Source: Blasia pusilla
Lineage: Eukaryota
Length of the DNA stretch: 64,000 nt
Direction of reading: 5' to 3'
NCBI GenBank assembly: GCA_050084515.1
Contig: CM114271.1
Location: 41,168,001 to 41,232,000 of the forward strand
The notes below the pieces were generated by a model. That model was not told where the DNA came from. It saw nothing but the letters and a program-made list of their open reading frames with translations, and made no database searches. The translations under genes and the position numbers were made by a program. Below are positions 16,201 through 63,440 of the stretch, in pieces (positions within the stretch are counted from its first letter, which is position 1; every line of letters starts with the position of its first letter).

Positions 16201-16278
16201 GCTTTTAGGACCCTCATTTGGAGCGGGGTAAACATCCTGTTGGACGGACAACTCGAACAGCCCTCGGTGCTCGTCCAT
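7232..16278 (-). CDS. DMXL: DmX-like / RAVE complex subunit Rav1 (Rabconnectin-3 alpha) WD40 protein, multi-exon, 3' part missing from window
   Basis: Phase-compatible GT-AG exons read by eye: 16278-15894, 15702-12856, 12550-12019, 11705-11474, 11075-10911, 10725-10453, 10345-10076, 9697-9182, 8962-7232. N-terminal WD40 repeats (VLLTCCRDGVIRLW, VVTGCSDGALRLW). Rav1p_C signature: W..IRSLGVGYW...MEKVARAQY...KDPKDCALLYLAL...LAGLFKLS...DFM/DEKNKVAALKNAYVLMGKHRHELAAAFFILG. C-terminal WD40 exons were not found in 1-7231. Confidence 0.92.
9789..9899. repeat. ~43-bp direct repeat (2 copies) in a DMXL intron
   Basis: attcttggagtcagaagacctg(t/c)(c/a)aagggaca(t/c)tccaaactc at ~9789 and ~9857. Confidence 0.85.
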
Positions 16279-17298
16279 GATGCAATGTAGGTCAAAGCTA
16301 GGATTGTCGAGTCCTATAAAATAAGCATTCCATTCTAAGACAAATGCATCTGCAACATGAAGGGATTGATCTTCCCACCCAAACGTTTCCAGTTATCCTA
16401 ATTCAGCTGCCCACCATCGGATTGAGCTTATTGAAACGCGGATCTGTGACGCCGAAATTTCCATCGTTGCACTGCAGAGCGTATCTCACCAACGTGACAC
16501 CTCATAACCCTGCCTTTTCGAATCGTTACGGCAAACATACCACAGAAATTCGAATACTAGTCCGGATACCGATCTTCTCGGCAGACGACCATCGCGTAGT
16601 CTTGCACCTAAAATATCGAATCCAAGTGAGCCTCACACATGAGACGCACAAAGCAACTAAGGCTCCGTATCGACATATAACGAACAAATCACAACCTTTT
16701 GCGCAGCATAGGACAGAGACAGATATTAACATAGACATCAATTTTAGGTCTCGCATAGAAAGTCCTCAACAAAAGACATTCCTACTCTAGAATTGAAAAC
16801 CTGGCAAACTTGAAGTAAAATCTTCACAAAGAATCAGCACTGCAATACTGAACCCATAACACACATACAACTGTGAAACGAGGGATCTCCGAAAAAATCC
16901 ACAATCGAGCCCGATCCCCGTATTAAAGGATCACGTCATCTAGGAGACAAGCACAGTGCACCCCCCTCATTCCACCCCACGACTGAAGTTCTTGGATACG
17001 CACAGAATCAACCACATCCAGCAGATGCTCCTACATCAACCCCAAATATGCACTTAACGGCGAAAACGGGAGCACGGGCATCAGTATTTCTCACCATTCC
17101 AAACTGAGAAATTTCTCCAACACTTCCAACAACAGGAAACTCAACACAGATATACATAATCACCGCGAATTCCCCTTCCACGACAAAAAAAAAAAACCCG
17201 CGATCCATCAGAAATCCAGAAAATGCCCGATATTTGGCGATCATTCAGACCGCCCCACCCAACCGAGCACGAGTATCGATCGCACGATTCGCACTCAC

Positions 17299-18626: not shown

Positions 18627-18938
18627 TGTGGAAAACTCCTAAACAAACATAATTGGTGGAAAACGGCTCTCTCACACACACACCACCATGGAGAACGAAA
18701 TTTGCAATGACAGAATGAGTGGAGGTTGGTCCTCTTCTCAATTATATAGGATATGTACAAGCAACCCTAACCCTATCCTTAACCATAGTCTCGAGTTAGA
18801 CTAACTATGATTAACTAACCCTAGTTAAGATAATCGTGCTTAACTGACTAACCAAGATTAAGCTTCCCTACTTCGTGTGAGTACAAAATATAGCAGTTCA
18901 AGTGTCTCATGATCTTGACTGTAACCCAATCTTCAATA
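18627..18938 (-). mobile_element. Ty1/copia 3' LTR
   Basis: Preceded on the minus strand by PPT (cttgagggggag, 18950-18939). Termini TATTGAAG...TTCCACA. Reverse complement of LTR 29751-30060. Flanked by GAAAG. Confidence 0.9.
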
Positions 18939-18952
18939 CTCCCCCTCAAGCT

Positions 18953-21900
18953 GAGATCGATATCTCTAACGCCTAAATCATGCTAAACATCTCAAACTTA
19001 TCTCTAGACAATGCCTTTGTAAAGATGTAAGCAATTTGCTGATTTGTACTTATATACACAAGATCAATTTCTCCTGCAAGCACTTTCTCTCTGATAAAAT
19101 GATAGTGCACCTCAACATGTTTTGTACGAACACAGGGTTATAAACAAGTTTGATGCTACTAATATTGTTTGCATATATTACACTAGGTCCCAAATTACTA
19201 GGATCAATCTCAACAAGTAATCGATGAAGCCACACCGTCTCACATGTTGCATTGGTTGCTCCTATGTACTCAGCCTCTGTTGAAGATAAAGCAAGTGTAG
19301 GTTGCTTCTTTAAAGCCCAACTTATAGATGCGCTTCCCAAAGTAAATGAATAACCAGATGTGGAGTGTCGATCAGACACGCTTCCTGCCAAATCAGCATC
19401 TGTGAATCCCTGAAATTGAAAACTCGGAGAAGGTTCAAATTGAAGCCCGAATTGAATAGAGAATTTCACATACCGCATAATCCTCCTCACAGCATGAAGG
19501 TGAGGTTTTTGAGATGCTTGCATAAACTAGCTCACTAGGCCAACAACATAACTCAAATCTAGTCTGGTTATAGTTAGATAGATCAAATTTCCAACCATGC
19601 GGCCGTACATATTAGAATCTGCAAGGAGCTCTCCTTCATCCATTCTTAGCTTCACGCTCTGCTCCAACCGTGTAGAGATTGGCTTACAAGCCATCATACC
19701 ATGTTTTGAAAGCATATGAAGAGCATATTGTCATTGCAGTAACCACATATTCTCTCCAACCTTGATAAACTCAATACCAAGGAAGTACTTGAGTTCTCTC
19801 AAGTCCTTCATATCCAATTCTGCTTGTAACTTAAGCTTGACTTGTTGTACCATTTTTTCAGTACTCCGAGTAATAAAGAGATCGTCAACATATAACACAA
19901 TTAGAACTGTATGATCTTGTCCTCTCAAGACATATAACGATGAGTCAAAATCACATACCCTAAAACCCAACTCTTGTAGGACGTATGTAATCTTGCCATA
20001 CCAAGCTCTTGAAGCTTGATTGAGCCCGTATAGAGCTTTCTTCAACCTGCATACGCGAAATGGAAACTTGGGATGCTCGTATCCATGTGGTTGAGTCATA
20101 TATATCTCCTCATATAGATCTCCATTCAAGAAGGTATTCTTAACATCCATGTGATGTAATCTCCACTTCTTACTTACTACAACTACAACCACTGTTGTGG
20201 TAGTCGCCATCTTTGCAACAAGGCTAAATGTTTCCTCATAATCGATACCATATTATTGTGCGTAGCCCTAAGCCACCAATCTCGTTTTGTATCTGTTAAT
20301 TGTATTATCTTCATTGCGCTTGATTTTGGAAACCTATTTGCAACCAATAGCTTCCTTACCGAAAGGTATATCAACCAGCTCCCATGTTTGTTGATGTCTT
20401 AATGCAGCAAGCTCTTCCTCCATAGCTTCAATCCATTCAACTTTTACTCGTAGATTCTTCAAAATAACTCGGCTCCTGCTCTTGAAGGGTAGTCATCATA
20501 TATGCATGATGTGTTGCAAGGAAACCTTCATTTATGAATCTATGAAGTGGATGTGTAACTCTTCTTGATCTACGAAGTTGTTGTTTAGAGGTAGATGCCT
20601 CGAACACCCAACTCGAGCTCTGACTAGTGTCAACAGACTAAATATGTACTCTTTCCGTCTATGGACTCACAGATTTAACTGATGAATCTAGGACCTCTCC
20701 TAATTCTGCACTAGTACTTGGGGAAGTTGAAGACAAAGTATGTTGGTTTATAGTCATATTCTCCCCCTCAACAGACAGAGGTGGAATATGCTCAAATGGA
20801 GCATACCATGACTTTAGTTCATCAAAGACAACATCCCGACTAATAATAAGCTGCCTAGAGGATGGAATGTAGCACTTATATCTCTTAGTTGGCTATGTTG
20901 ATGGAATGTAAGTGCTACATTCCATCAACATAGCCAATGAAGATACATCTTTCAGACTTGGGATTTAATTTCTGAAGCCTCTCAGAAGGAACATAAGCAT
21001 AACAAATACAGCCATATACTTTCAAGAAGGAAAAATCAGGTTTACTTCTTGTGAAGACTTCGAATGGAGTTTTATCATGAACTCTTGCTGTTGAAGTTTG
21101 GTTGATTAAGAAGACTGCACATGCTACAGCCTTTGCCCAATACACCTTAGGCATGTTCTTCTCATTCAACATAGCTCGTGCAGCTTCAGCAATATTTATT
21201 CCTCTCAGCTATTCCATTTTGTTGTGGAGTGTAACGGCAAGTCACTTGACGTTGGATGCCATTCTGACGTAAATAGCCATCAAAATTTGTTGAAAGATAC
21301 TCTCCCCCTCCATCACAGCATAATTTCAGAATATGTTATCCAGTCTGCTTCTCTACTAGAACTCTAAATGTTTGGAACAATGAGAATATCTCTGACTTGG
21401 CTTTCAGAAAGTATACCCATATATATACCTAGAGAAGTCATCAATAAATGAAACAAAGTACTGACAACCACTAAGGCTATGTTGTGATGTTGTCCACACA
21501 TCACTGTGGATCAACTCCAATATCTTGGATGCTCTTCTACCTTGCTGTGGAAAAGGAAAGCTAGCTTGTTTTCCAAGTTGGCAAGCAGGACATACCTCTA
21601 ATGTAGTAGGAATCGCTAATTTAGGGAGTCCTATTACTATATTAGATAATGAAAGACTCTATAATCTTTGAAGATTCATATGTCCAATTCTTTTATGCCA
21701 TATATTTAGATGTGTGACTTGTTGGCCGGTTTGACCATACATTGCTGTTTGAATCTCTAGCATAGAAACATCTAATTTTAACATTCTCCCAGATCTAGTT
21801 TCTTTGGCTATCGTAGTCTGGTCATCCATAATTTCAATGAAACAACTATCTGCGTCAAACTTCACTTGATAACCCTATTTTACTATGTGTCCTACAGAGA

Positions 21901-22740
21901 TCAGGTTTCTTGCAATGGTAGAAACATAGAGAACATTTCCAAGAGCACAAAGACCATCTGATGCAATTGGAACTTCACCGGTATGCGTGATATGATGTTG
22001 AGTATTATCTCCTTTGAGCACAATTGCAGGATCTTTCACCGGCTCCAAACTACTGAACTATTTAGCTTGTGAGGTCATGTGATTTGATGTACCAGAGTCA
22101 ATGTGCCAATTTGTTGTCGATTCTTTCTTGACCATTGCTCTTATATGATGAGTCATGACCAAGAGATGCTCTGTTTGTGAATGTTGTTGTTCTTGGTACT
22201 GCTCTTAGTGTTGTTGCTCCACATAGTTTTGTTGCTGTAAGGCTCTTGTTCTCATATCTGCCTTCTTCTTGAAGCAAAATTTTGCATAGTGACCCTTTAT
22301 TCCACAATAATTGCAAGATCCAGGGACCCTCTGATGTTGACCTCGACCCCAACGGTTTCCACCATCACCACCTTGTGATTGTGCGGTTGGTATTGGTTTG
22401 TAGTTGATTGAGTGAAGTTATATTGAGTGTCTCTTCCTCCATATGCTTGATATCCACCACGACCATGAAAGTTTCTACCACAGCCCCTGCCTCTGTTTGA
22501 TCCATAACCTGCAAGTAGTACACTCTCTAGCAGACTAGACGAGCTACCGCTGTCTACTAGGCGCATCTCTTCACTGATAAACAGAGAAACTAACTCTTGA
22601 AAGGTTGGATACTTCTCTTTCACAGAGATAGAGATCTCAAAGGACTTGTAATCTTTTGGAAGGCCTTGAAGAGAGTGAAGAAAATCAGATCATCATCTTC
22701 TACTATCACTCCAATACTATTCAACTGATCAACAATATCC
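18953..22740 (-). pseudogene. Ty1/copia gag-pol (gag C-term/zinc knuckle, protease, GAG-pre-integrase, integrase, RT, RNase H), disrupted
   Basis: WHKRIGHMN; MLNEKNMPKVYWAKAV...LINQ; LHHMDVKNTFLNGDLYEEIYMTQP...LKKALYGL...LYVDDL; GFTDADLAG...STSGY...SSTEAEY. Many stops and frameshifts. Confidence 0.95.
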
Positions 22741-22745
22741 AACGT

Positions 22746-23361
22746 ACCCAAAATCGCTCAATTCTGACACTCTGAGCTCTTGCAGCATCAATTTCAGTGT
22801 AGGAAAGTGTAATTAATGAAGAAAAGTTGTGTAGTTTGCTCTCTACATGCCAATTTCGACTAGTTCTTTCATACAGTTGATCAATTTTGGCAAGTTTCAG
22901 GTCAATTTCTGCGTAGGAGTGGTCTATGCTTCAATTAGAGCAGTAGAAAGCTTGAAATTACGTTTTTGTGAGTGAAATCGTTTATCATGGAGTATTCCTC
23001 AACAATAATCACAAGCGAGAAGCTAGACAAGTAGAATTACAATGTCTGGAAGTTTCGCATGAAACAATTTCTCATGGGTCAAGAACTATGGGAGCTTGTC
23101 ACAACTGATGAGGCCAAGCCAAACGATGACTCAACAGAATGGAATGTTCGCGCTTCGAACAAACGCGCAAGGTAAGTAATCCACTACATTTCAATAACGA
23201 TCAGTTCGCCAATGATAGGTCACATCCAAGATGTTGATATTCCAAAAGAGGCCTGGGATGCATTGGGAAAGCTATTCTAGATATCTACAAAGGCCATAAA
23301 GCTTCAATTGAATCAGAAATTAAACAAAGTAAGGAAAGGATCGCAGAGCATCAATGATTAT
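22746..23361 (+). pseudogene. Displaced, inverted copia leader + gag N-terminus
   Basis: From 22987: MEYSSTIITSEKLDK*NYNVWKFRMKQFLMGQELWELV...KEAWDALGKLF...KGSQSINDY. Its continuation (DIVDQLNSIG) is on the minus strand at 22740. Flanked on both sides by AACGT. Confidence 0.85.
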
Positions 23362-26300
23362 AACGTGGTCACAGACTCGTCTCGTGATCGACCACCTCGT
23401 CCCACAAACGGCACGGGTATTTGACTCATTCGGCCATCATCTGACCGCCACCCTCGTTGATAAGCAACGATCTCTCCCAAAAGTCAAGGATGAATCCTAG
23501 GGGATATAACACTGTACTCCCCACCAACACATCGTACGACTCAGCTGGTGTCGTAATTGCACGTGTGCGCACCATAACACTATCCGTCGCATGCTCTGGC
23601 TGGACTGTGACAACTATCTCCTATCGAGTCATATACTGTGTGGGTGAAACACCCCCAATCAAGGTCTGTATCTAGAAGGGATAAGGCTCAATGTCGGCCT
23701 TCCGTAACCCCAAGGCTAAACACGCCACCTTCCCTAACATCAAGGGTTGCGCTCCCAAATCAAGTAGGACGCGCTGCGGATGGTATTTTCTCCCCATGGA
23801 ACTAACCAAGCAAAATACTCCAGCTCAGTTTTCTAGTAACACTACTCCAGGTGTCACCATTGCTTGCTCTATGGCCGATCGAGCTGGCATATCTACCAAC
23901 TTTGCCAGCCGCCGCATGCCATGACTCTATGGGGAACGTCACAAGCACCGGCTCTAAGGGCAAGTCCACCACCTCCTCAACTACCTCTGAACAAGAAGCA
24001 GTCACCACTCCACGCTCATACAACGTGGCGGCCAACCAAAACACCTCAGTTGGTCCAACTCCCAACATCGCCAACTCTATGGCAGAAAATAATGGAGTCT
24101 GACTCACTCTAGTGGCCACCTCCAACACTATGGTCGACACTGACTCCACTCGAACCTGCATAGGAGTTGTCACTCCCACTCCTCGTGACGTCGACGTAGG
24201 TGCTTGAGCTATAGGCACCGCTGGTCGTCGAGGTACCATCGATGGTGTGTGTAGTGCCTCCCACAATGTGAATGACTGTTGAACCGTGGCCTAGCGTCCA
24301 TCGGTCCGCTCTGGTGGGTCAACCTCAACTCCACCTCTCGATGGCTCGGTGCCTCTCGCATCACCTCAAGTCACCATTGCAGCCACCTCAACCTGAGCTG
24401 CACTACACATAAACCCCATACTGGCGAGATCCTCACTCAGGTCAAGGTAAGAGGTAGAAGCTAGAGTCACACTAGTTGCTCGCGGCTCCGTGCCTTAATT
24501 GAGCTGCATCATCGTCATGGCAACAATCCTCTGCTCCAATTGATCGATGCGTGAGAGAAGTGACGACTCTGGTGCTCTTGCTCCATCTCCTCTAGCTGGT
24601 GGTGGTCCTCTACCACCACGTCCAAGAAGAACTCCCCGACCTCCTCTAGGACGACCGTCCCCAAGCCCTCGGCCTACCTCTGGGAGTGCCTCGCGGCGAA
24701 GGTCAAAACATCTATCCCTAGTGTGACCATATCTGTGGCAATAGTCACACTGGTGTTGTGACTATTGGGCCATCCTCTGTGGCTCTTGAACAATCGGAGG
24801 TGCTCATGGTCCTCTCCCATGCTATGGGCAGTCTCTCTGCCTATGGGCCCCTCCACAGGTCCAACAAGACCACATCGGTCCCTCCTGGGCAACATATGTA
24901 GGTACAGGTTGTTGCCTCATAGGCTCACGATACCCGACCTACTCTCTGGGCACACCTGCCCGCTCCCATGGTACTGGTGCTTGCTGAGCCACCTGTGGGG
25001 TCACCGTCTCTCGTAGACTTGTCGACTCTCGAGAAAATCCAACAGTCACTATCTGCTCTTCACTCATGTTGAGTTCAATACGCTCAGAGAACTCAAAGAC
25101 CACCTTCAATGTGGGCTTTGTTGTGTGAATCAGCACCGCATCTTGGCCTCTCGGCCTCTCCTCCGTAGTTCTCGGTTCAGAACCCCGTACCAATATTGGA
25201 CTGACTGCGCCTCAATCACTCCATACAAAGCAATGATCAGCCTCCTCATGCATGTGAATGCCTCTCTTAGACTCTGACCCAATCGTTGCTGAAAATCATG
25301 TAGACTCTTCAGCTTGTCAGTGCGTATGCCCTAGTAGCTCTTCCCCAAATGTCACAAGAAATCCATTATGGGTCTGTAACTGGGTGGCCCTCTACCACCA
25401 GAGGTCTTTGCCACATCGCCCGTCTCACTGCCCTCCTCTCCATCTAGTCTCCGGGCTGATGGTCTGGGTCTCTCTCCTCTCCATATGCCACCATATGCCT
25501 TGCGACCACTAGTGGACACATACCCTGGAGCCCAATACATTCTCCAGACATCGATCTCTACTGAATATAGTGATCAAAACGCCATGTAGTCATCCATCAG
25601 AGGACCCTCCAAGTGTTGAAACAACCCCTTCCATCCCATGAAAGGGTTGAACCGTGTCGGGGTCCATATCTCTTGGAAGTCGCACCACGTGTCGAACTCG
25701 TGGATAAAATCATCTAAGTCGATGGTGCCCACTGCACTCAAGAAACAACGCATGCCCCGATGGCCCATGTCCTCCATCGCGTGCCAAGTGATACTACCTC
25801 CGTTTGCAATCTCGTCACCAGACCCGGTGTCTAGTGATGACGATCCAGCCACGGATGGATGTCGAGGTAGCTCCTCATTGGTAACCCCTCGACATCTCAC
25901 TCCACTCCGTGTCACACCACTACTACTGCTTGCACTACCCCATTCTTTCGAACCCTCGAAGAACGCCGTGATGACAAACTGTCTCACCCGCTCAAGCACT
26001 CAGACTCACCGAGAGTCTCCCACACTCCTCACTAGCTCACCTATGCTAACATCAATCCCGTGATGACATACCTGGCCTCACGCACACTCAACACTCACGC
26101 TCACCATGAGCCTCCCAACTGACTCACCTAACCTAGCGACACTCTCGGGTCATACATGTGACCCCTATGCGGCAACCGCCGTATATCCACCAACATGCTA
26201 CACATGAAAAGAATCTACACTCGTCACCATCACTGCACCCACCTAGCACCAACTACTACCCAATACCCAGCACTCTCAATCACAGACGACAAGTGTGGGA

Positions 26301-29750: not shown

Positions 29751-30060
29751 TATTGAAGATTAAGTTGCAGTCAAGCTTATGAGACACCTGAACTGCTACA
29801 TTTGGTACTCACACAAAGTAGGGAAGCTTAATCTTGGTTAGTTAATTAAGCACGATTATCTTACTAGGGTTAGTTAATCACAATTAGTCCAACTTGAGAC
29901 TATGGTTAAGGGTAGGATTAGGGTTGATTGTATATATTCTATATAATTGAGAAGAGGACCAGCCTCCACTCATTCTCTCATTGCAGATTTTGTTCTCCAT
30001 GGGGTGTGTGTGTAAGAGAACCGTTTCCGAGCAGTTATGCTTGTTTAGCAGTTTTCCACA
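29751..30060 (+). mobile_element. Ty1/copia 5' LTR (partner of 18627-18938, now inverted)
   Basis: TATTGAAG...TTTTCCACA, followed directly by the PBS. Preceded by CTTTC, the reverse complement of the GAAAG TSD. Confidence 0.9.
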
Positions 30061-30072
30061 TGGTATCATAGC
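30061..30072 (+). promoter_or_regulatory. Primer-binding site, tRNA-iMet type
   Basis: TGGTATCATAGC, one mismatch to the canonical TGGTATCAGAGC, immediately after the LTR. Confidence 0.85.
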
Positions 30073-30642
30073 GGGGGGAGAACATCACTTGAAATTCTTG
30101 GTGTTTGAAGAGAGAAGATAGGCAAGAGAAGGAAAAATTTCAGTTTGGAAGAAGGAAATTTTATTTAGAGCTCAGTGGGTGCAGATTTCAGGTAGAGCTT
30201 TGACGGTGATAAAACTTTGGAGGTATTTTTTAGGGCTTTCCCATTCGAATCAACCGTCTGGGTCCGCTTCAGCTAGAATGATGCTAATGGCGCGTTCTTG
30301 CCCTATTGTGGAACTCCTTGAGGGCTTTGGCAGCTTTCACAGGTAGTGTTAGCTAGCCATGAGAGTTGTTGGAGGGGAACGCACATGCAAAGGATGTCCC
30401 GATAGCGGATAGTCCCATGGAGAGACAGGCCATTGTGGGAGTCTCTTCCCATGTTGGCGAGACCTCTTCACCATTGTGGTGTACGACTCGAGAGCTACAC
30501 AAGAGTGCCGACGACCTCGTGAGGCAGGCGTGGAGTCATGCCTTTATCTTGGAGCAGCGAGAGTCAAGTGGCGATCGGGCTCCTGGAGTGGAGACGTTGA
30601 CTTAATTGGATACCACACCCATTGTGTGGCAGTGTCCAGAGG

Positions 30643-31560
30643 AGGGTGTTAGATCTCTTCAGAGGGATTAGCACCGGATTGGCTGTAGTATTGCAGGCGG
30701 CCATACGGGTGCATTAATACCTTTATGTGGAGAGAGATGAGACCGCGCGACGAGTATCATTACGTCACGTAGCGAGATTGGTCTAGAGGTATCCTGAGTT
30801 TTTGCCGGTATCTGCAGTACGGGGATATCAACATACACTACCCGCCGACATCTCGCTGATGGGGGCGCAGGATCTCGATAGAGTTGGCACCATTCATTTG
30901 GTGATTGTTGGATGGCCATTCTAGGGTCATTCATCAGCTGGCGGAGGATTTGGATTGCAGGATCCGAGGTTAGGGATATTTTGGGAGATGCTGCGAGTAG
31001 TACAACACTTGCAAGAGAGTCAGACATGTTCTCCAGCGTACATTTTGGAGAACGTGTCGTTGTTGGGAGACACTTGTGCACGTGTTATGACGAGTGTGCA
31101 TCATATGAGATCTTGGTTGGGACCTGTTGTGTTGCTAGATGCAGCGAGAGTTACGTGCCCATCGTCCACGATTGTGGTGGACGAACGTGATACCATCAGA
31201 GGTACTGAGTCGAGCATACTATGGAGTCTAGAGAGCACCACATCTCACAGTGGATGCTATTTTGGGCTCAAGGCGTCGATCTCAGGTGGTGACGCGTTAT
31301 GATAGACCACTGTTGGCGATGGCCAATAGGGTGGGGGAGTTGAGGGCAGCCTTACCTACATTGGTGAGCTTCCAAGCATCCCATGCCTTTCATGATTTGG
31401 GATGAGGTGACCGGAGCATTGGAGGAGCCTAGAGCAGATGAGCGCGAGCACGCCATGGGGTTCGCTACCGGTACTACGACGGTGCCAGGGATGACTCAGG
31501 CATCCTGGAGACAGGTGTTGAGGGAGGCGATGGACCTCAACTGTCTTACATGGATAGTCA
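30643..31560 (+). pseudogene. Retrotransposon-encoded cytosine-5 DNA methyltransferase domain (DNMT3-like motif order)
   Basis: Motifs in linear order: I RVLDLFRGIS; II YLYVERD; III LPADI; IV HLVIVGWPF*GHSSAG; V GLQDPRLGIFWE; VI YILENV; VII LLDAARV; VIII AHRPRLWWTN; IX EREHAMGF; X WRQVLREAMD. Interrupted by stops and two frameshifts. Confidence 0.9.
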
Positions 31561-31869
31561 GCCTAAGTATGGCTGAGTAGAGACAGATGCGAGTGTCATC
31601 CATGCTGTCACGTCCATGAGTTGGACCATTTCCTACAGGGTTTGTACAGGCATTGGCTGGGGGCGAGACGAGGAGAGATAGGCACCCATGGACTTCCTGG
31701 AGCATCGTTCGAGCGGAGAGTGCAAAGGCGGCCAGAGTAGCACATGTTCATTTTTTGGATGTGGAGCATGGTGTAGGAGGTCAGAGTGGAGTGGCTGTTG
31801 CAGAGGTGGCTAGGGTTGCTACATAGCAACCAAAGCCGGAGATTGCGTCTTCTCCGAATGAGGTCACGA

Positions 31870-32820
31870 TGGAGACTTGGGAGCCTGTGATAGATCTCAA
31901 GTTGATAGGAGGAGACTGACGTCGAGTTCATAGGTTTTTGAGAGGGCATGTCAGTTGTTTTGCCTTTAGTATGAGAGACTTGGGTATGTTGAAGAGTCCC
32001 GGGATACGGATTGAGTTGACTAGTGATACGCCGATCTTTTGTCGACCCTACAGGTATTCGGATATGGAGCGAGCCTTGATTCAGAGCAGGAGTCAAGACT
32101 TGTTGGAGGCTAGGCTTGTGGAGTTATCACATGGGGAGTATGCATCTGCCACAGTCATGCCGGCGAAGAAGGATATGTACGGCAATTGGACGGATATGCG
32201 GATGTGTGGAGATTACCGTCCTATCAATTGATAGACGAGGTCAGATCGGTAGGCCATGCCTACTCCTGAGGAGATCTTTGATGCGGTAGGACATGCAAAG
32301 ATCTTCAGTACTTTAGATCTCCATGATGGCTATCATCAACTTCCTATCAGTTTGGAGGATATGGAGAAGACAACATTCTGGGGGATAGATCGGTTTGGGA
32401 GAGATTGCTTGTATCAGTGGCACTTCTTACCATTTGGGTTGAAGAATGCATGCAGAGTTTCAGAGAGTGATGGATAGGATTCTCGTTGGCTTGGATTTTG
32501 TACGATGTTACATAGATGATATTCCTAGCTTTAGTTCCACGGTTGAGGAGCATGAGCGACACTTGGAGGAGGTGTTTCGGCGATTGCAGTTACATGGACT
32601 GAAGTTACATCCAGGCAAGTGCAGATTGAGTACTTGGGACACATCATATACCCGAGTGGATTAGGCGTTCAGCAGACGAAGGTAGAGGCTATTGCGCAGA
32701 TTACATGCCCTATAGATGTGAGTCGAGTCCAAGCATTTCTTGGACTGACAAACTTCTATTGACGGTATGTCAAGGGTTTTAGTGCGATCGCAAAGTCTTT
32801 GAACTTGATCGCAAAGTCTT
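31870..32820 (+). pseudogene. Ty3/gypsy reverse transcriptase of the DNMT-carrying element
   Basis: PIFCRPYRYS...VMPAKKD..GNW..RMCGDYRPIN...FSTLDLHDGYHQ...LPFGLKNA...FQRVMD...CYIDDI...HGLKLHPGKC...EYLGH...AFLGLTNFY. Confidence 0.93.
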
Positions 32821-32841
32821 TGATGAGGCGAGTCTGTGACC

Positions 32842-33060
32842 AACGTGGTCAGAGACTCGCCTCGTGATCGACCACCTCTTCCTACAAACTGCACGGGTAA
32901 TTGACTCATCCGCCCGTCACCTGACCGCCACCATGGCTGATAAGCAACGATCTCCTCGTAGAAGTCAAGGATAAATCCTAGGGGATATAACACTGTACTT
33001 CCCACCAACACATCATACGACTCAACTGGTATCGTAATCGCACGTGTGCGCACCACAGTT
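32842..33060 (-). pseudogene. Inverted family B/D protease C-terminal fragment
   Basis: ESYDVLVGSTVLYPLGFILDFYEE...WRSGDGRMSQLPVQFV. Diverged paralog of 23362-23580. Confidence 0.85.
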
Positions 33061-36000
33061 GTGTGATGGTGGAGTTTTAGGAGTTTTGTGCGCAACAGGG
33101 AGTTATGTGATCTCCATATACATGTGTGAGTTGATTTTTGTACATGTGTGGATCAATCCATCTGGGGGGAAGATTGGTGTTGTGTGGTGTAGATGTGACC
33201 AGCGATGTATTTTGTGTAGCGATATGCATGCGCACGACACATTTGAGAGCTATGGTGTTGAGAGAGATTGGATCTTGATTTACAAAGAGAGAATGAGATG
33301 AGTGAGACAGCTTCATGGGGGAGCTCGTTGGTCACTCGCTGGTTTTGCAGGTTAGGGATCGTTTTCCCCGTTTAGCGGTTCATGGGACTACTCACATGAG
33401 CTAGAGCCGCTCATTTTTTCTGTTTTTTTGCCAATTTTTCGTGTGGAAGAGTGGCGCGCGGAAGCGTTGCCCAATTTTTGATAGGGACAGAGTATGGGGG
33501 AAATTTCCCCATGCCAGTGCTCTTGGGAGCATCATGTAGCTTGCTGATTTTTATTTTCATAGGTTTTACATTTTCATTGGGAGAAATCAGCGCAGAAGCG
33601 CTGCCAAATTTATGTAAGAGAAAGATACGTTGGGCTTTACAACAATCCCCGTAAGTTTTTAGTGGAATGTTAGATTCAAAATATTTTTTGATGTCATCCT
33701 AAATCGTGAAGCAGTGCACGCTGTGTAATAGATGGTGCATAATTTGAAGCTGCAAGCAAAAGTTTAGGGTCAATCTTGCAAAATTGCCATTGGAAGGCGA
33801 TTTTTAAGGTTAAATTTTCAAACCCCAAACCAGCCGCTGCGCCTGCGGCGGTCGTCGCCATCATAGTCACCATCAACAATCCATCATTGATGGTCAACTA
33901 TCACCATTGACGGTCAATAGTCATTGTCAATGGTCAACCACCATCGTCAACGGTCAACCATCACCGTCAATAGTCCACTGTCCCCTTCAACGGTGCACCG
34001 TGGGCCGCCGCCGCCGCCTAACGCTTGCTCAGAGCTTCGTTCCGCCGTTGCCCATCCTTGGTTGCCATTGCCTCCATTACGAAGTGGAGGGTCTTCCACG
34101 ACGACCGTTGATTCTCTGACTTACGCTGCTACCACCTACTTTGTTTTGGCCGCCATCGTCATCGCAGTTTCGTCATCAACCAGTGATGGCAGGTAACCTC
34201 GGGTTATGGTGTTTGAGTTTTCATTTCATGATGCTATGTTGTGATTGGTAGCTGCTCAACGACGATCGAGTACCATGTCATGACGTCCGTAGCCGCAACG
34301 CATTGCCGATTTCCGAGCCGTGCCGCTCGTGGCTGTACCGCACCGTCTCGATTGCGGAGGCGCTCCTTCACTAAGGGGCAGAGCGTGTGAATTGTTGATT
34401 GAGGAGGGTATGCCGCAGAGTGCTACACCCCATTCCCAAGTGTCGTGCTATTCCGTGCCACCAGTGCCGCATCAGACCGCTAGACTTGCACCGTACATCG
34501 AGGAGGTTTGAGTAGCGTCAATACGAGAGGAGTATGACTTTCTGATTGGAGGAGTTGTCTTCACGACCGAGTTGGGGTCGAGATTTGCAGTTTCCAAGGA
34601 GCGACATCAACATTATTATCAGGTTACCCATTCTGGTCTCTTACCCTACATATGTGAGGGATTTCCAAGTATTGGGAAGTTATTTGGGATATTGGGTTTC
34701 GTGTTGATGCTGAGAGCATTGATGATGTATGGGTTTAGGGGACATAGACCTGTGTGGGATGTCCAGAGTTGAGGATGGTTTATTGATGAGGCGATAGATC
34801 AGTTGATTTGCCGCACCACGTTGCTTGTTGCCGTACAACACACGTCTCAATGAGAGAGTGTAGATTGAGTGCCGCATGTTTAGTTTGAGTGATTGAGGGA
34901 TTACTCGTGAGATTGAGAGTGATCGTGTGAGAGGGGCACAAGGGCCATCACGATGTCCTTTCGGGATTTTGAGAGGCGAGATAGTGGACCTGAGAGTAGC
35001 TTTGGAGGATTTACCCGGAGTGGTGCGAGGTTTCGAGGGTCTCCACATGAGAGACCACCTCGATCTCCTTCTATGTCGTCTTCAAATGAGGGGAAGCGTG
35101 TAGAGGAGTGTGTTAGTGATCCACGACTTCTAGAGGCGCCCGGGTGAGAGTTTGCGTGAGGCTTACACTCGCTTGCACCAGTTTATCAATGTCACTCAAG
35201 GGGTGACAGAGGCTCAGGCTATCCAGGCATGGTACACGATGCTGGACCGGATCGTGCGGACATGGGTGCGAGAGGGGTGCTTCTTATGAACAGATCTCTA
35301 CGTTAAGAGATGTTTTTAGGACCGCCGAGAACATTGAGCGCAACATGGCGGAGGAGGGTGTAGCCATCATGGATTCTGGGCGAGAGCACTCACGATTGTC
35401 TACACCACCAGTGCAACAACGTGGACTCCGAGATAGGTCGACTGTGGTACCACGAGCTCAAGGAGGATACCGGGAGGCCGTACCACAGAGACGTACACCT
35501 TCATATGCGGCTTAGCAACAGCCACCTACGATTACTTGTTGGTCATGTGGTGGAGCACATTAATAGCGTGATTGCACGCGTGAAGATCATGGACGTGTGC
35601 CTCAACATGGAGGAGGAGATGGTGTTGCACCAGGAGGTTATCAATGTGATTATTGTCAGAGATATGGTCACACACATGCCACGAGTTTTAGTTTACACCC
35701 TGAGTTACGTGCAGACCAAGGGCCAGAGAGAGCACTAAAGCAGGTAGCCAGTCCGGGTGGGCTAGAGATCGTGCACCTGGTGGTCCCGTCCCGTTGGGGA
35801 ACGAGGAGCTAGAGTTGTCCAACAAGGTGATGGAGCTGCCCATGGAGGAGGTAGAGTCCCACCACCTAGATGCGTCGAGGGAGATGCCAGGCATGAGGCT
35901 GGGATGGCTACTCAATACAACAGCTACATCAGCATATTGCTGCTATGGCATTGAGGTTACCCAATGCCGGATCTGTGGCATGGTCATCATATGGAGCAGC

Positions 36001-36960
36001 CAGAGATATGGAGGATCCTGGTTGGATGTGCAGGGTTGCCCAGATGAAGGCCGCCGCAGTTGTGACGCATGGAGCAGCTGCAGAGTTGGATCCAAAGCGA
36101 GGGGAAGCCAAGAAATAGACCAAGTTGCCTCAGTCTTTCACGTTGTCTGAGGCAATGAGGATCCCATTGATGGCTCTTGATCAGAGTTCCCGGAGAGTTG
36201 GTGATGTTATTGGTGTGTAGGCATGGAGGAAAATGGGAGAAACAAGTATGACGATTCCTATTGTTGATGCTCAAGAGGAGCATGTGTCAAGTACAATGTT
36301 GGGGGCGGCCACAATGATGTATTGCACTCCGATATTTTCTGCTTCCGATGTTGTGACATTGTGAGGTACGCCGAGTGAGGTGTACCAGCTGACCACTATG
36401 TTATGTGAGCGTGAAGTTGGAGTTTGTGCATCACGTTCAGAGGTGATTGTAGAGGAGGTGATGGACCTGCCCTTGGAGTTGATTCTCGGGTCGTCCAGCT
36501 CAGAGTCATGGCAGGTTGCGGCTGCTAGGATGGTGGAGATGCTCGCAAGATCCGCGATAGAGCGTGCCATGGCTTCTCCTAGTGTTGTGTTGCTCGATAA
36601 GGGAGGAGAGGTCTTCCAATTGGTGAGTGTCAGAGGTAGAGCTTTTAGTCCGCAACGCGTCTTGTTGGATTTAGGAGCGCAACACCTGATGTTGGGGAAA
36701 GCGTCATTTAGAGGATTGGGCTTAACGAGAGCCGATGTGGAGTGTTATCCATTCCGGATACATACATCCTTTGGTGGAGCGAGTACCACACAGTATATCA
36801 TCCGACAAGAGGTTGTGGTGAGGATTCATCCGAGACATCCTACAGATGAGTCCGTGGTGCGAGCCAAGGCGATAGTGATTGATGCAGAGTCCTACGACAT
36901 CTTGGTTGGTGGAGTAGTGTTATACCCGATGGGATTTTCCCTAGATTACTGGGAGTCAGC
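33060..36960 (+). mobile_element. Family D element: LTR/leader, gag with zinc knuckles, protease
   Basis: YQCDYCQRYGH zinc-knuckle-like motif. ORF 36380-37027 contains RVLLDLGAQHLMLGK...AESYDILVGGVVLYPMGFSLDYWE. Confidence 0.8.
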
Positions 36961-38222
36961 GTTTCTTCGAGTAAGGGCTAACCTTCTAGCTATAGCAGAC
37001 GTGGTTGATTCAAGTCGAACTTTATAAGAATTTCTCCTTTTTTAGTACAAAATTGTTATGTAAACCCTCTATTCTCTCACAATAAGAATCACGAAAGGTA
37101 GTGTCAAGGCGATCACTTCTTCAAAACATGGAACCCCAAAATTCCTAACTATGAAATCCTTGTAAACTACTTTACGTTTGCACACAAGGAAAATACCACA
37201 ACTAGTGTTAAACCCTACTTGAGCAGGCCTATTGACGTCCATGGATAGTTATATAAGGACATACAAAGTGCAATCCCATGTCCTTCCGTACGTGACTATA
37301 GGAAGAATCACCGGAGTTGGAGATTGCATGACTTGGTTCATGAACGCGTCCCGAAAGTGATAAACTAGATAGCGAGTGATCCAGTGCCTATCTATAAAGA
37401 GAATCTTGACGTCGTACGGGTTAAGGAAAGGAAAATCCGGCATAACTCGTGCTTCATCCCTATCCATACTTGACAAACATCCTTTACTCTCCTCTAGAAT
37501 GGGATTTGGCGGAGTTGCTCTCCCAAGATGGGTAATCCACTCTCATTGAGAAAATAATAAGCCAAACCATCATCTATTTCTAGTATGACTAAATTGATTT
37601 AAGGTGACAAGTCTCTCATCTCCACACATACCACACTCTAGAAATCTCTCGAAAAATAGACGAAGGTCAAGCTACTCTCCCAAGAAGGGATAATCCACTC
37701 TTATTAGAAGAGCAAGCAATCCCAAAGCCATACACTCAAGAGTGACATGAGAGACTCAAGATGTGAAGTAGAAGGCGATGAACCCTTGAAGGTCCCTCCT
37801 CTTTATATACTCACAAGGGATCCACAAGAGTACGAAATAAAGCTAATCTTATCTTGTGCCACATGGCTTCCTCTCAAGGCTTAGCCAATCATATTTTGAC
37901 ACAAGTAGATTTCCTCTTATCTCTTCCAAAATATCCTTTTTTATCCACTTGATATTTTCCAAATTACCTCAACTACCCTAACTACCAACCAAGACTTCTT
38001 TTGCTTTTCATTGAACCACCAACCTCACTACTTTACTTTTATAAAGTAATCTTTTTTTATTACCTCTTTTCGGAAAGTTGGGCCCGCATAAAAGAGGCAC
38101 CACAAAGAGGTTTAAACATGGGAATTTCCTTTTCATAAGCTAATTTACTTAATACTTATAAAACTCTGTCTAATACTTAATGAGGAAGGAGTTTACACAC
38201 TGGATGATTTTATTATACGACA
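36961..38222 (-). mobile_element. Family C LTR (~1.26 kb)
   Basis: Colinear homology with 55029-56140, 62164-63440 and 51695-53088. Plus-strand end ...TTATACGACA; the other terminus is truncated. Confidence 0.88.
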
Positions 38223-38378
38223 ATGTTGCAGAGGCAAAATATAGCTCGTATGAGAGTGAGTGCTTGGCTGCAGTGTGGGTTGTCGTATATTTTAGGTGTT
38301 ATCTATTCGGCAATCGCTTATCCATCATTATTGGTCATCAGCCACTTAAGTGGTTGATGGAGTCCGACAAGCTTGTAT
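38223..38378 (+). pseudogene. Ty3/gypsy RNase H fragment
   Basis: NVAEAKYSSYESECLAAVWVV.YFRCYLFG......HQPLKWLMESDKL. Confidence 0.88.
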
Positions 38379-38797
38379 GACTTCATTCTAGAGTTTAGGA
38401 GCTGGTAAGACTTAAGCTTGCAGAGGGCTACGAACTCAAGAGATTCAACCCTTTAACAACATGGAACGGGATGTTCCAACACGTAGAGGGGGACAAGTAC
38501 CATGATTTCTCCCATAGGTACGCGGCCGAGATCGAGTCTTAGAGACTCTTTTCATGCGCATGCACATTGTTATCATCAAACATGCACACAAACACACATG
38601 AGACCATAAGTACCAAAATATCTCCAATTAAATCAAGTGATACTCTCAACTACAATATTCCATGGTGCACAAAAATCCCTCTCTCTCTCATGTCAAACCA
38701 AACTTACTCTCCTAAAGAGAGGCTCGAGCCACACACACAAGGCAAAGAGGACCATAACTCCGTCGCCTCTACCAAGAGGTTCAACAAACAGAAAATG

Positions 38798-38799
<2 letters not shown>

Positions 38800-38879
<80 letters not shown>
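38800..38879. repeat. (CT)n microsatellite
   Basis: Perfect dinucleotide run. Confidence 0.99.
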
Positions 38880-38880
<1 letters not shown>

Positions 38881-38882
<2 letters not shown>

Positions 38883-39887
38883 CTTTAATCTTTGTTGTTG
38901 CGGAAGCGTGCGTTCAGTAGGTGACGCTCTCATTGCTAATCTGCATCCAAATACGCACTCTGGTAAGTCGAGTCTTGGATCAATCAGCGGGCTAAGTTTC
39001 TGAGTTCTTGTCTTGGTTGCTCATCAAGCTCAACCTTCCTAGATTCGCGGTTCATAACACATGCAAGTCTCGAAAGACTTGGGACAAACTTTCTGGTCGA
39101 TTCAGGAACCTCAAACATCATTTCATGTCTGGAAGTTCCAACTATCCAATAGACATCCAATGAGTCCCTAACCAAGACTCGTACAAAGTGAATCTCGGGT
39201 CGGAATCCAAGTGTGGCGTACAAAGTCCACTCCCTTGGATCACGTTTGGGTTTCGAGTTCCAACGCCAAACTCCCATTCCATCCCGTGCCTCTGAGACGC
39301 CGTTTTGTGCTCAAAGTGGAGATTCGTGTTCCAAGACATCTTGGAGAGACTCCTCCCTTACTAGTACTTCTGGGGATCTCCGGGGTTCCCTACATTTAGG
39401 GAAAGACACCCGGGCCTCTCCAATTGGCCCTCAACCTGATTGCTCTTATAGTCAGTTTTGGCCAATATCTCAGTCTGTACTTATGCGTTTGCTGAGATCT
39501 TTAGTGCGTTGGAAGCGTCTCAACATAAGCTTTCCAACGCGACCTTATTTTTCCCAAATTCATCTTGGAGCTAAATATTATGGTCCAAAACACAGTCAAA
39601 TTCTGCAAACGCTAGTCGTGAGTCAAAACTAGTTCTCATCTCCTTGGCAACCAATCTTCCAAGACTCAACTCATCTCAAGTCTTGGCTTGCATTTGGTCT
39701 AGATTTCTTGGTCACGACCACTAATGCATGAAACGCACAACTCTGTTCCGCGTTTCGTCTCTTGGACTTTTCCAAGAGACCTTTCCAAAAGCCTCTCCAA
39801 ATCGCGATCATCGCAGCGTGAGTCCACTTGAGTTTGATGTTTCGCTTGGCGCCTATTTGGTGTTGTTTGGTTACGAGGGTCGCAACA
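38881..39887 (-). mobile_element. Family E (chromovirus) solo LTR
   Basis: Reverse complement homolog of 43440-44433. Starts TGTTGCGACCCTC at 39887; the other end merges into (CT)n. Confidence 0.8.
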
Positions 39888-40043
<156 letters not shown>

Positions 40044-40059
40044 CCTCCACGGAAACCTA

Positions 40060-40308
40060 TGTTTTCAGGTCATCTCCTTGACTCTTGAGCTGTTGTAGGA
40101 AGTGGAAAGTCTACTATGCTCAAAATGGTAACTTGCCAAAAATAGTAAGTTCTCAATATGGATCCAAATGAGCCAAAATGAAGGGGAAACCTACTCTCTC
40201 ATGTTACATGTGGCCTCAGAAGGTCATCCTCAACCTCTTGAGGCTGTCCTCTTGTATACTCGAAGATACCCTACTAGATCTCATCGATCTACCCTAAAAG
40301 ACGTGACA
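40060..40308 (-). mobile_element. Family D LTR 5' part (continues left of 38800)
   Basis: Starts TGTCACGTCTTTTAGGGTAGATCG. Homologous to 28148-27880. Confidence 0.75.
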
Positions 40309-40579
40309 TTCTATTATGACCAACATTACTTGTCATAGACTGAAGCATTTCTAGATAAGAAGGAGAAACTAGGGAAGGCTACTTCCTCTTCCACTAGTGA
40401 AAGTTAAGGAGGGGTGAGTCGGATTGGGGCAATTGTTTCCTTGAGTCGGTTTTGTCCTAGGTTCAACCTCATGGTTGAGTTCTTTGCGGAGTTGCGTAGG
40501 AACTCCACAAAGAACTCCAAGGAGGTATGGACTCAGAAGTTGTGAAGCATCCACGACTTCCATAAGCACACAAGGAAGA

Positions 40580-41105
40580 GTTTGCGGAGTTATTTACTTT
40601 TTTTCGTCATTTGATTAGTATTACTCAAGGGGTGATAGAGGCCTAGACTGTTCAAACATGGTATAGTATTCTTAAACAAGTCGTGCAGAAACGGTTGAGG
40701 GATGTTGTACTCCTCATATGTATCTCATCTACCTCGTGAGATATTTTGGGATGGCAGAGTGCATTGAGCGCAACATGGCTAAGGAGAGTGTAGCAACCAT
40801 GAGTCATACGTGAGAGCGATTACGATTTCCTGCACCACTAGTGCAACAACATGGATTTTGAGAGAGAAGTGTGCCACCGCGAGTTCAAGGAGGTTATCGT
40901 GAGCATGTGCCATAGCAAACCGTGCCATCACATGCAGATAAGCAGCAGGTGCCATGAGTTATTTGTTGGGCATGTGGTGGAGTCCATTGTCAGCAAGATT
41001 ACATTCGTTAGGATAGTGGACTTGTTCCCCATTCTGAGGAAGTAGATGGACCGGCACCAAGAGTATACTAGTGTGACCATAACCAATGGTGTGGTCCTAC
41101 ACGCG
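40580..41105 (+). pseudogene. Family B/D gag remnant
   Basis: Homologous to 35160-35680 (actcaaggggtga..gaggc; attgagcgcaacatggc). Confidence 0.7.
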
Positions 41106-41495: not shown

Positions 41496-42748
41496 CCAAT
41501 GTCCGGGGAGAACAGGGGGTTACAAGCGTCGAAGCGGTTCTTCTGGCCCAACATGAAAGAGGATGTTGCTCAATATGTGAAGACCCGTGTGACCTGCCAA
41601 GCCAATAGAGTCTCTTATGATAAGAAACAGGGCTTGTTGCATCCCTTGCCGATCCCAGAAGGACCTCTTGCAAAGTGTGAGTATGGATTTCATCACGAGT
41701 CTTCCGGAATCTGAGGGATACAACGCTATACTTGTGATTGTTGATCGGTTTAGCAAGTTGGCGAGATTCGTGCCGACGGTGGATTCCGCAACGGCTTATA
41801 CGACGGCGCAACTATTCCTCGATAGCTGGTGGCGTGCTCATGGTTTGCCGAGGAGCATTGTTTCAGATCGGGATCCAAAGTTTATCAATGCTTTCTGGAA
41901 GCACTTGTTCAGAAGGTTTAAGACCAAGCTGAGTTTCAGTACGGCTTTCCACCCACAGACGGATGGACAGACTGAAAAGGTAAACTCTATCGTGAATCAG
42001 TACTTAAGGAATTATGTGGTCTTTGATCAACGCGATTGGGTCAAGTGGTTGAGCATGGCGAGTATGCTACAACTCGACCAAGCATTGCATTTCGGGAGAA
42101 TCTCCGTTTCTCTGGCAAATGGACGAGCCGAAGGGCCTCTTGATCTAGCCCTTTGGAAGGGTTCTACATTGGCACGAACACGACAAGCGGCGAAGGTTTG
42201 TTGGTAGAGATGCGAGAACAACAAGCGAGGCGAAGTCTTGCAAAGGCTCAAATGAGGTACGTTAAGCATGCTAACAAGAGTCGGCGCCAAGTATGATTCC
42301 AAGTTGGAGAACAAGTGTGGTTGAGTGTAAAGAACCTCATTCTTCCGAAAGAGTTGTCTGCGAAGGCATTTATCGCCCCGCCAAGTATCTTTGGACTGTC
42401 GTGATTGTGGCAAACCCGTTTGAGGATGTGTATACGTTGAGGCTGCCAAACGAGTTCAAGATTCACCCGACCTTTCATGTGTCATTGTTGAAGAAATATC
42501 TTCAAGATAATGGACGTTTCGCGCGGAGACAGGTGGTGAGACCGCACCCGGTCATCATAAATGAAGAGCCGGAGTTTGAGGTGGAGACCATCTTACGTTC
42601 GAGGCGTCGGGCCAACAAGTATGAATACTTGGTAAAATGGAAGGGCTACCATGTGAAGGAGGTGACTTGGATTGTGGAGGCGGATTTGGAACACGCGCAA
42701 GACTTGTTGCGCGACTTCAAGCGAACACAAGCGAAGCACATACGTTAG
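41496..42748 (+). pseudogene. Ty3/gypsy integrase with C-terminal chromodomain (chromovirus)
   Basis: FFWPNMKEDVAQYVK..VTCQ; SVSMDFITSLP...VIVDRFSK...PRSIVSDRDPKF...STAFHPQTDGQTE; IHPTFHVSLLK; EFEVETILRSRRR...EYLVKWKGY....TW. Confidence 0.93.
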
Positions 42749-56140: not shown

Positions 56141-56144
56141 TTTG

Positions 56145-63000: not shown

Positions 63001-63440
63001 CCTTGAAGGTCCCTCCTCTTGATATATTCACCAGGGATCCACAAGAGTACAAAATAGAACTAATCTTATCTTGTCTCACATGGTTTCCTATCAAGGCTTA
63101 GCCAATCATATTTTGACACAAGTAGATTACCTCTTATATCTTCCAAAATATCCTCTTTTACCCATTTGATATTTTCCAAATTACCTCAACTAGCCTAGCC
63201 ACCAACCAATACTACTTTTGTTTTTCATTAAAGCACCAACTTCACTACTTTACTTTTATAAAGTCATATTTTATTTATTATCTCTTTTCCTAAAGTTGGG
63301 CCCGCATAAAAGAGACATCATAAAGAGGTTTAAACATGGGAATTTCCTTTTTTGTAAACTAATTTACTTAATAATATAAAATTCTATCTAACACTTAATG
63401 AGGAAGGAGTTTACACACTGATTGATTTTACTATACGACA
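60012..63440 (-). mobile_element. Family C Ty3/gypsy copy 2: full 5' LTR (63440-62164), degenerate PBS, gag, protease
   Basis: ORFs 61390-62034, 60755-60961 and 59985-60275 are paralogous to copy 1. LTR termini intact. Confidence 0.88.

Follow-up and report, generated by a model that had tools for sequence, protein, structure and literature searches.

A decayed Ty3/gypsy fragment with a DNMT3-like methyltransferase domain in the liverwort Blasia pusilla and its bryophyte relatives

Methyltransferase-bearing retrotransposons and the Blasia locus

Retrotransposons with a cytosine-5 methyltransferase (C5-MTase) encoded in Pol have been described from dinoflagellates (SymbioDIRS-Dnmt3), from Cymbomonas and Euglena (EpiLTRs) and from the charophyte alga Klebsormidium nitens (KnitGypsy-Dnmt3) (de Mendoza et al. 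2018, PMC5890265; 10.64898/2026.05.21.726589). Here we describe a locus of the liverwort Blasia pusilla, in which a DNA methyltransferase (DNMT) domain lies between the protease (PR) and the reverse transcriptase (RT) of a Ty3/gypsy element. The whole stretch of DNA that was analysed, called the window, has a length of 64,000 nucleotides (contig CM114271.1, positions 41,168,001 to 41,232,000), and all positions below are window positions. We consider the segment 30318-32825 to be a dead, rearranged internal fragment of a Ty3/gypsy long terminal repeat (LTR) family with a DNMT3-like C5-MTase between PR and RT, with a probability of about 0.85; the identity of the element as such is near certain. 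The family lives in bryophytes, that is in liverworts including Marchantia polymorpha and B. pusilla, and in the moss Sphagnum.

According to the two sources, SymbioDIRS-Dnmt3 and the EpiLTRs share with this family the C5-MTase in Pol, but have DIRS or chromovirus-like (with DAM) backbones, other hosts and a DNMT of different origin, the one of the EpiLTRs being sister to DNMT4. KnitGypsy-Dnmt3 is described as acquired “in the K. nitens lineage” and as low in copy number (PMC5890265). It resembles the bryophyte family by an intronless, non-permuted Dnmt3-related domain in the Gypsy Pol open reading frame (ORF), by its occurrence in multiple copies, by a streptophyte host and by kept catalytic residues, a likeness that is drawn from its published description. 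Unlike in K. nitens, the host is here an embryophyte (a liverwort, and also Marchantia and Sphagnum) and copies number hundreds instead of few. No K. nitens protein was present among the named matches of our searches or the 30 relatives that were looked up.

A DNMT-carrying Gypsy is already known from Klebsormidium, and the occurrence in land plants appears to be unreported, though the sequences are public as hypothetical proteins. A search of the full-text literature, with subscription journals and supplements outside its scope, revealed no earlier account of retrotransposons encoding a DNMT in bryophytes or any other embryophytes. Plants silence transposons mainly by cytosine methylation, and a transposon with its own de novo methyltransferase reverses this logic. 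The only described case from the plant lineage is a charophyte alga, with few copies and an enzyme without signal in yeast. A large transcribed bryophyte family, together with apparently intact ORFs in the transformable model Marchantia, makes the benefit of the enzyme for the element testable in a land plant. The family furthermore bears on the reading of bryophyte DNMT gene counts and methylomes.

The window fragment, its intact relatives and its copies in the genome

On the forward strand the fragment consists of a decayed linker, a C5-MTase domain, a spacer and a Ty3/gypsy RT with many breaks (Table 1). A single frame (30598-31302, 4 stops) comprises VLDLFRGISTG (motif I), YVE, GWPF*G (motif IV, the asterisk marking a stop), DPR..FWE, ENV and LDAARV. 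EREHAMGF and RQVLREAMD lie within 31368-31580, and the single frame 31368-32477 with 7 stops spans DNMT motifs IX-X as well as the first RT blocks. A preliminary description made from the letters of the window alone had placed C5-MTase motifs here in canonical order, on the same strand upstream of a Ty3 RT, and reading out the frames 30598-31302 and 31368-31580 confirmed it. Motifs I, IV, VI, VIII, IX and X stand in non-permuted order, the same order as in an alignment of the Marchantia protein P0007 with DNMT3A. In a tblastn search residues 771-1261 of P0007 matched the window at 30318-31772 in 4 pieces (E 1e-114), with linker and DNMT distributed over 3 different frames with about 10 stops and an identity of 51-66% over the DNMT; the DNMT part contains at least 3 frameshifts. 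All this is far beyond chance.

Relatives were collected by a word-seeded search of longer proteins with the window DNMT piece, in which stops were masked as X. Fifteen of 2722 candidates matched (11 from M. polymorpha, 1 from Sphagnum troendelagicum, 1 JGI and 2 Logan sequences; identity 50-77%, 476-1333 amino acids). P0007 contains a gag with CCHC motif, a protease with LLDSGA, the linker and a DNMT with GWPCQG, ENV, RAHRARLWWTN, ERERAMGF and RRQVLGQAMD, and has no RT behind it. The Marchantia protein P0014 is built in the same way and runs on into the RT (gag-PR-DNMT-RT). P0009, likewise from Marchantia, has the order PR-DNMT-RT-RNase H, with PF00145 (460-529) N-terminal of PF00078 (RVT_1, 833-919) and of the RNase H (RH) families PF17917/PF17919 (997-1098). 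The order gag-PR-DNMT-RT-RH, proposed in the preliminary description, is thus borne out by the single Marchantia ORFs P0007, P0014 and P0009; in the window fragment itself no RNase H follows the RT. The intact relatives from Marchantia and Sphagnum with this order in a single ORF have an identity of 65-72%. When strict patterns are applied, GWPCQ is kept by 13 of 15 bryophyte-clade proteins, and all six motifs are found in 4 of 15. Motif IV is missing in P0014 and P0016.

The type of enzyme was approached by sequence and by predicted structure. When P0007 was compared with every sequence of the PDB, 27 chains matched, 25 of them DNMT3A, 3B or 3C, with DNMT3A as the best (E 1.7e-8). M.HaeIII was matched at E 1e-3, and chain 4onj_A, a plant DRM, at E 2.6e-3 and at a permuted position. 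An AlphaFold model was calculated for P0004, the nearest relative of the window copy, on an alignment of 38 rows spanning bryophyte, streptophyte-algal and chlorophyte relatives. It had a mean predicted local distance difference test (pLDDT) value of 78, mostly 85-98 over residues 340-670. All 32 Foldseek matches listed for this model are DNMT3A/B/C (E down to 3.4e-18, 21-24% identity), and among them the template modelling (TM) score by target was 0.41-0.83, and 0.76-0.83 for isolated catalytic domains. The motif VI Glu is invariant in the 38-row alignment; the Cys-Gln of motif IV, ENV and the His-Arg..Arg..Trp..Asn of motif VIII are conserved in at least 90%. A protein atlas returned only generic C5-MTase clusters. 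By sequence and predicted fold the domain of the family is therefore taken as DNMT3-like and not as a permuted DRM, whereas a bacterial type, which the preliminary description had allowed for besides DNMT3, is not favoured. The animal DNMT3A/3B/3C structures, which are the best PDB matches, have the catalytic fold, the motif order and the motif VIII pattern AHR.R..W.N in common with the family; in contrast to them, the domain at its 21-24% identity has no PWWP or ADD, forms part of a retrotransposon polyprotein and occurs without introns in many copies. A link with the host DNMT3 of bryophytes (Yaari et al. 2019), which the preliminary description had considered, is conceivable.

Parts of the stretch were matched by twelve sequencing runs, at a share of 0.25 at most; no RNA run is listed among them, and air-metagenome and other coded runs had small shares. 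One genomic run (X18), two RNA runs (X19, X20) and one contig set with the same species label were mapped on 30000-33200 at a likeness of at least 80%. From about 1% of run X18, 36297 reads mapped, 42 of them at least 99% alike, 959 at 95-99%, 12133 at 90-95% and 23163 below 90%. Over 12 DNMT bins the summed depth was 917-1519, compared to about 2 for the class of at least 99%, and thus the family copies appear to be in the order of hundreds, a rough figure that rests on this class of reads. Persistence and amplification of the family, as claimed before, are supported by this depth and by reads that are mostly 80-95% alike; nevertheless both window copies are dead and have a stop in common, and so they are not two products of an active enzyme-bearing master.

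The preliminary description had also assumed that the fragment is inverted relative to its protease. This inversion is real, as the PR end at 32835-32844 (reverse strand) and the linker start at 30318-30327 (forward strand) meet at P0009 residues 284-286, that is at the same codon (residue 286 at 32835, residue 284 at 30318). The PR-to-DNMT junction that had been proposed at 30327 is carried by genomic reads of the same species: 499 X18 reads join opposite strands, at 32844-30327 (232 reads), 32840-30331 (259) and 32839-30333 (8). They represent the uninterrupted PR-to-linker junction of other genomic copies, at 30327-30333. Furthermore, X18 reads carry extra letters at the frame changes of the window copy (409 of 927 at 30642, 259 of 730 at 31152, 581 of 1619 at 32446-32450, 294 of 1903 at 32620), and therefore these four breaks are private to the window copy.

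The RNA runs X19 and X20 yielded 932 and 884 mapped reads, nearly all less than 95% alike. Over the DNMT bins the first mates map almost only to the minus strand, and this bias flips over the minus-strand PR fragment. The canonical PR-linker junction is crossed by 2 (X19) and 3 (X20) RNA reads. The reads are sense transcripts of other family members and not of the window copy, provided that the usual convention for stranded libraries applies. As short reads, they give evidence of sense fragments only.

Some observations weigh against the reading of the fragment as part of an LTR family with a DNMT3-like enzyme, among them the assumption on library strandedness just named. The catalytic Cys of motif IV is gone in both window copies, which read PF* (copy 1) and PYK (copy 2) in place of PCQ. 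Because of this loss both are inactive; both are dead, and nothing in the window is functional. Absence of a PF00145 hit had been named beforehand as a ground for refutation, and the window copy alone reaches only 18.4 bits (E 0.0015), below the cut-off of 22. This is due to its decay, as the intact relatives show: 7 of 8 homologs tested pass PF00145 (27.7-40.8 bits; 27.7-48.9 bits among relatives overall), with matches that span the profile partly. Five of 8 window pieces had no Pfam match at all, and of 4 RT pieces one passed RVT_1 (40.5 bits, E 3.2e-10), one stayed below the cut-off and two gave no match. A repeat search found no LTR pair bounding any family copy within the window, where all copies are without their 3′ halves, and neither integrase (INT), PHD finger nor primer binding site (PBS) of the DNMT family was found there. 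The status as an LTR element is accordingly derived from gag-PR-RT-RH homology and from the relative P0209, a metagenomic protein with PR-DNMT-RT-RH-INT-PHD in one ORF. Finally, at 80% likeness part of the reads over the RT region may stem from other Ty3 families.

Relatives in green algae and the possible role of the enzyme

With an exhaustive phmmer search we obtained 623 representatives at E ≤1e-3, 238 of them at E ≤1e-10, and of the 8000 longer proteins that were scored against a profile, 178 reached E ≤1e-10. Architectures were counted in 182 proteins with a near-complete DNMT domain. In one group the DNMT follows RT/RH (RT-DNMT-INT 93, DNMT-INT 16, RT-DNMT 8), with the chlorophytes Scenedesmus, Haematococcus, Monoraphidium and Chromochloris among its named members. 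In the other group it follows PR (PR-DNMT 31, PR-DNMT-RT 5, PR-DNMT-RT-INT 5, DNMT-RT 3), and Marchantia, Sphagnum, Closterium spp. and Mesostigma viride are named members here. In 21 proteins the DNMT stands alone. The relatives P0075 and P0105 contain zf-CCHC. A C-terminal PHD finger after the integrase occurs with both domain orders in proteins from metagenome contigs (P0051, P0069, P0071, P0196, P0209), P0071 having a G-patch in addition; with the PHD finger the polyprotein thus contains, besides the DNMT, another module related to chromatin.

For a FastTree phylogeny of 104 rows we used all 65 proteins not of the DNMT-after-RT/RH type, the two window pieces and a subsample (35 random plus named) of the 117 others. 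The two window DNMT copies pair with a support of 99 and fall into a bryophyte clade of 14 rows (support 100), whose other members are 9 rows from Marchantia, the one from Sphagnum, P0013 and P0004. All rows with the DNMT after RT/RH form one clade (support 97). The tree is unrooted and without outgroup, and does not allow the direction of change to be inferred.

The green-algal polyproteins (Scenedesmus, Haematococcus, Monoraphidium, Chromochloris, metagenome contigs) have a DNMT with homology along the entire domain (phmmer E 1e-50 to 1e-75 against that of Marchantia), the same catalytic motifs, a Ty3/gypsy backbone and a PHD finger after the integrase as in P0209. They differ by the order RT-RNaseH-DNMT-INT-PHD, with the DNMT between RNase H and integrase, and by forming their own clade apart from the bryophytes. 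No describing paper was found for these polyproteins, which are database entries. PR-DNMT(-RT) polyproteins of Closterium spp. and Mesostigma viride, also database entries, share the domain order of the bryophyte family and come from streptophyte-algal hosts, but the identity of their DNMT domains is no higher than about 30-40%, and these domains fall into other clades of the tree. It is conceivable, with the odds against it, that the DNMT3-carrying Ty3/gypsy is an old lineage of green plants, which reached land plants vertically and is no Klebsormidium-specific acquisition. The order PR-DNMT-RT may then have passed through streptophytes (Mesostigma, Closterium, mosses, liverworts), with RT-RH-DNMT-INT-PHD as a sister form in chlorophytes. 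If this is true, then, given the hundreds of copies and the transcripts in the species of the window, a de novo methyltransferase encoded by a transposon may be at work in a land plant and add to its methylome; the genetic model M. polymorpha has copies that look intact.

As to the role of the domain, the DNMT would be translated as part of Pol, and the element protease would release it or leave it tethered. It would methylate newly reverse-transcribed cDNA, or the DNA of the integration site, de novo, and a new copy would enter the heavily methylated plant genome already marked. De novo self-methylation was put forward for elements of this type by de Mendoza et al. (2018; PMC5890265). For the bryophyte family, methylation of the element's own cDNA or integration site is a tentative possibility, somewhat short of an even chance. 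What speaks against it is the only published test of such a domain: the K. nitens Gypsy-Dnmt3 domain gave no detected methylation in yeast, a result called inconclusive there, and CG methylation in yeast was shown only for the dinoflagellate DIRS enzymes (PMC5890265).

The same yeast result would fit a family whose DNMT does not act on its own cDNA, but on host chromatin (marking of insertion sites, or dampened transposition to the advantage of both sides) or on RNA, or serves in DNA binding or tethering together with the PHD finger. These alternatives are listed in the discussion of that paper (PMC5890265). The C-terminal PHD finger of P0209 and of the chlorophyte type suggests targeting to chromatin. 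Nevertheless, the Cys-Gln of motif IV, the ENV of motif VI and motif VIII are kept over very deep divergence, which argues for catalysis over mere binding, and fold as well as closest relatives are those of DNA and not of RNA methyltransferases. We regard a role other than cDNA methylation as rather unlikely.

It is very improbable that the DNMT-bearing ORFs are domesticated, TE-derived (transposable element-derived) host genes of bryophytes and not mobile elements. The Marchantia and Sphagnum relatives are annotated as hypothetical proteins, the Marchantia copies as genes with Mp locus names, and P0007 stops after the DNMT without an RT. Yet many Marchantia paralogs exist at 89-95% identity, besides decayed ones such as P0014 and P0016 without motif IV; the species of the window has hundreds of diverged copies; P0009 and P0014 have gag, PR, RT and RH as a contiguous series; and the window copies are pseudogenes amid other TEs. 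That the locus is a one-off chimera, in which a host DNMT3 fragment was captured by or juxtaposed to an unrelated Ty3 RT at this site only, has a negligible chance, for although the locus is heavily rearranged, with a palindromic junction, foreign LTR flanks and other inserted repeats, the order PR-DNMT-RT recurs in 11 Marchantia proteins, 1 Sphagnum protein and metagenomic polyproteins, DNMT and RT are in one frame, and the 499 junction reads and the DNMT depth come from the same species.

Other pieces of the family, rearrangements and neighbouring genes

The coordinates of the family pieces and their flanks are given in Table 1. At least two DNMT copies and several gag/PR copies within 64 kb, as the preliminary description had stated, were recovered. 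The second DNMT copy is cut on its 5′ side by another repeat and on its 3′ side by the window end, and lacks the 5-base gap of copy 1. Between both copies 54 transitions and 28 transversions were counted, and this spectrum and the CpG ratios are ordinary. A TAG stop (ARLV*RYP) is common to both copies (30784-30786 and 63458-63460), with identical surrounding sequence, and therefore the copies derive from an already dead template or from duplication at the DNA level, and not from two transpositions of a working element. A CCHC zinc knuckle gag lies upstream of PR in the window ORFs 24495-24761 (reverse) and 35567-35812 (forward).

Table 1 Pieces of the DNMT-bearing Ty3/gypsy family and their flanks in the window
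Feature	Position	Strand	Remarks
Left flank: LTR end of a different element (...CA at 30060) and PBS-like 12-mer (30061-30072)	29751-30072	+	89% identical to 18938-18627, just after the copia pol
PR-DNMT linker	30318-30650	+	tblastn, P0007 residues 771-881; 3 stops
DNMT motifs I to VIII (first part)	30604-31152	+	one frame, 3 internal stops; 66% identity to P0007 residues 875-1051
DNMT motif VIII (AHRPRLWWTN) and region after	31154-31408	+	another frame; 5-base gap relative to copy 2
DNMT motifs IX-X (EREHAMGF, RQVLREAMD) and spacer to RT	31386-31772	+	third frame, continuing into RT
Decayed Ty3/gypsy RT	31857-32825	+	tblastn, P0009 residues 689-978; frame changes near 32450 and 32600-32660
Near-perfect palindrome	32825-32863		last ~19 bases of PR-linker coding sequence in both orientations; 87% over 39 bases
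C-terminal protease fragment ending ...GESLTT	32835-33152	-	tblastn 33044-32835, P0009 residues 220-286; head to head with RT
Gag (CCHC) and protease, copy A	23397-25759	-	member of the same family; its break falls on the codon at which the fragment at 32842 is broken too
Gag and protease, copy B	35119-36970	+	more distant subfamily, ~65% nucleotide identity to copy A; interrupted at 36958 by repeat R
RNase H fragment of the family	38186-38377	+	tblastn, P0009 residues 1022-1085; directly after repeat R
Gag fragment	38370-38545	+	tblastn, P0007 residues 22-81
Gag fragment	40456-40999	+	tblastn, P0007 residues 133-313; other repeats between both gag fragments
Second DNMT copy (reaching from the motif IV region beyond motif VIII)	63440-64000	+	84% nucleotide identity to copy 1; 3 stops

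The right breakpoint of the fragment is a rearrangement junction of the fold-back type, since its 39-base palindrome is made of PR-end sequence in both orientations. Copy A has 89% identity to the PR fragment beside the RT, and in both the sequence stops at the same PR-linker nucleotide (23362 and 32842). In addition, a 312-base LTR end is present near both of them (18627-18938 and 29751-30060, 89%). The matching breaks and LTR ends suggest a single ancestral locus that was rearranged and afterwards duplicated, although no simple model fits. An insertion of a copia element is at most a possible cause of the shared break: no matching 5′ LTR exists at 22690-23361 and the PBS-like site occurs only at 30061. 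The PBS-like motif of 30061-30072 matches the window twice, and the same number was reached in 8 of 100 shuffles.

The window as a whole is a nest of transposons beside host genes. A Ty1/copia element (19050-22689, reverse strand) borders directly on the broken end of copy A; its gag lies at 22297-22689, its RVT_2 domain at 19731-20252 (E 8e-48) and its RNase H at 19050-19526. A chromovirus-type Ty3/gypsy piece at 41593-42748 (forward) has an rve integrase core, a match to SH3_Tf2-1 and a chromodomain, and belongs to a family other than the DNMT element. It was considered as the 3′ half of the DNMT family and dismissed, because P0209 has no tblastn match there and the relatives end in a PHD finger, not in a chromodomain.

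A repeat R of about 1.27 kb (36958-38229, 55028-56386, 60013-63447) cuts the gag-PR copy B as well as the second DNMT copy. An arm of R of about 250 bases recurs in inverted orientation (55028-55278 versus 56137-56386), and the middle part of R is therefore flipped relative to the internal region in two copies. R adjoins two inverted copies of another retroelement with gag-like ORFs at 57237-57821 (forward) and 61390-62037 (reverse), which gave no Pfam match.

The DNA is that of a land plant, as had been supposed. A host gene resembling RAVE/Rav1-DMX (7208-16392, reverse strand) has very long exons (980 and 603 codons) and a low CpG observed/expected ratio of 0.25-0.38. Its 980-codon ORF (12782-15721, reverse) gave 27 matches, none of them from M. 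polymorpha. It is closest to Riccia fluitans and R. sorocarpa, each at 60% identity, and Calypogeia fissa follows with 49%, whereas the moss Ceratodon has 33% and a fern 32%; the window is therefore of liverwort origin. An exon of an FMN-dependent dehydrogenase, which on our own reading is glycolate-oxidase-like, lies at 46906-47598 (reverse; FMN_dh E 1e-77). Within the transposon nest, long (GA)n/(CT)n microsatellites are located at 38790-38900 and 39870-40060.

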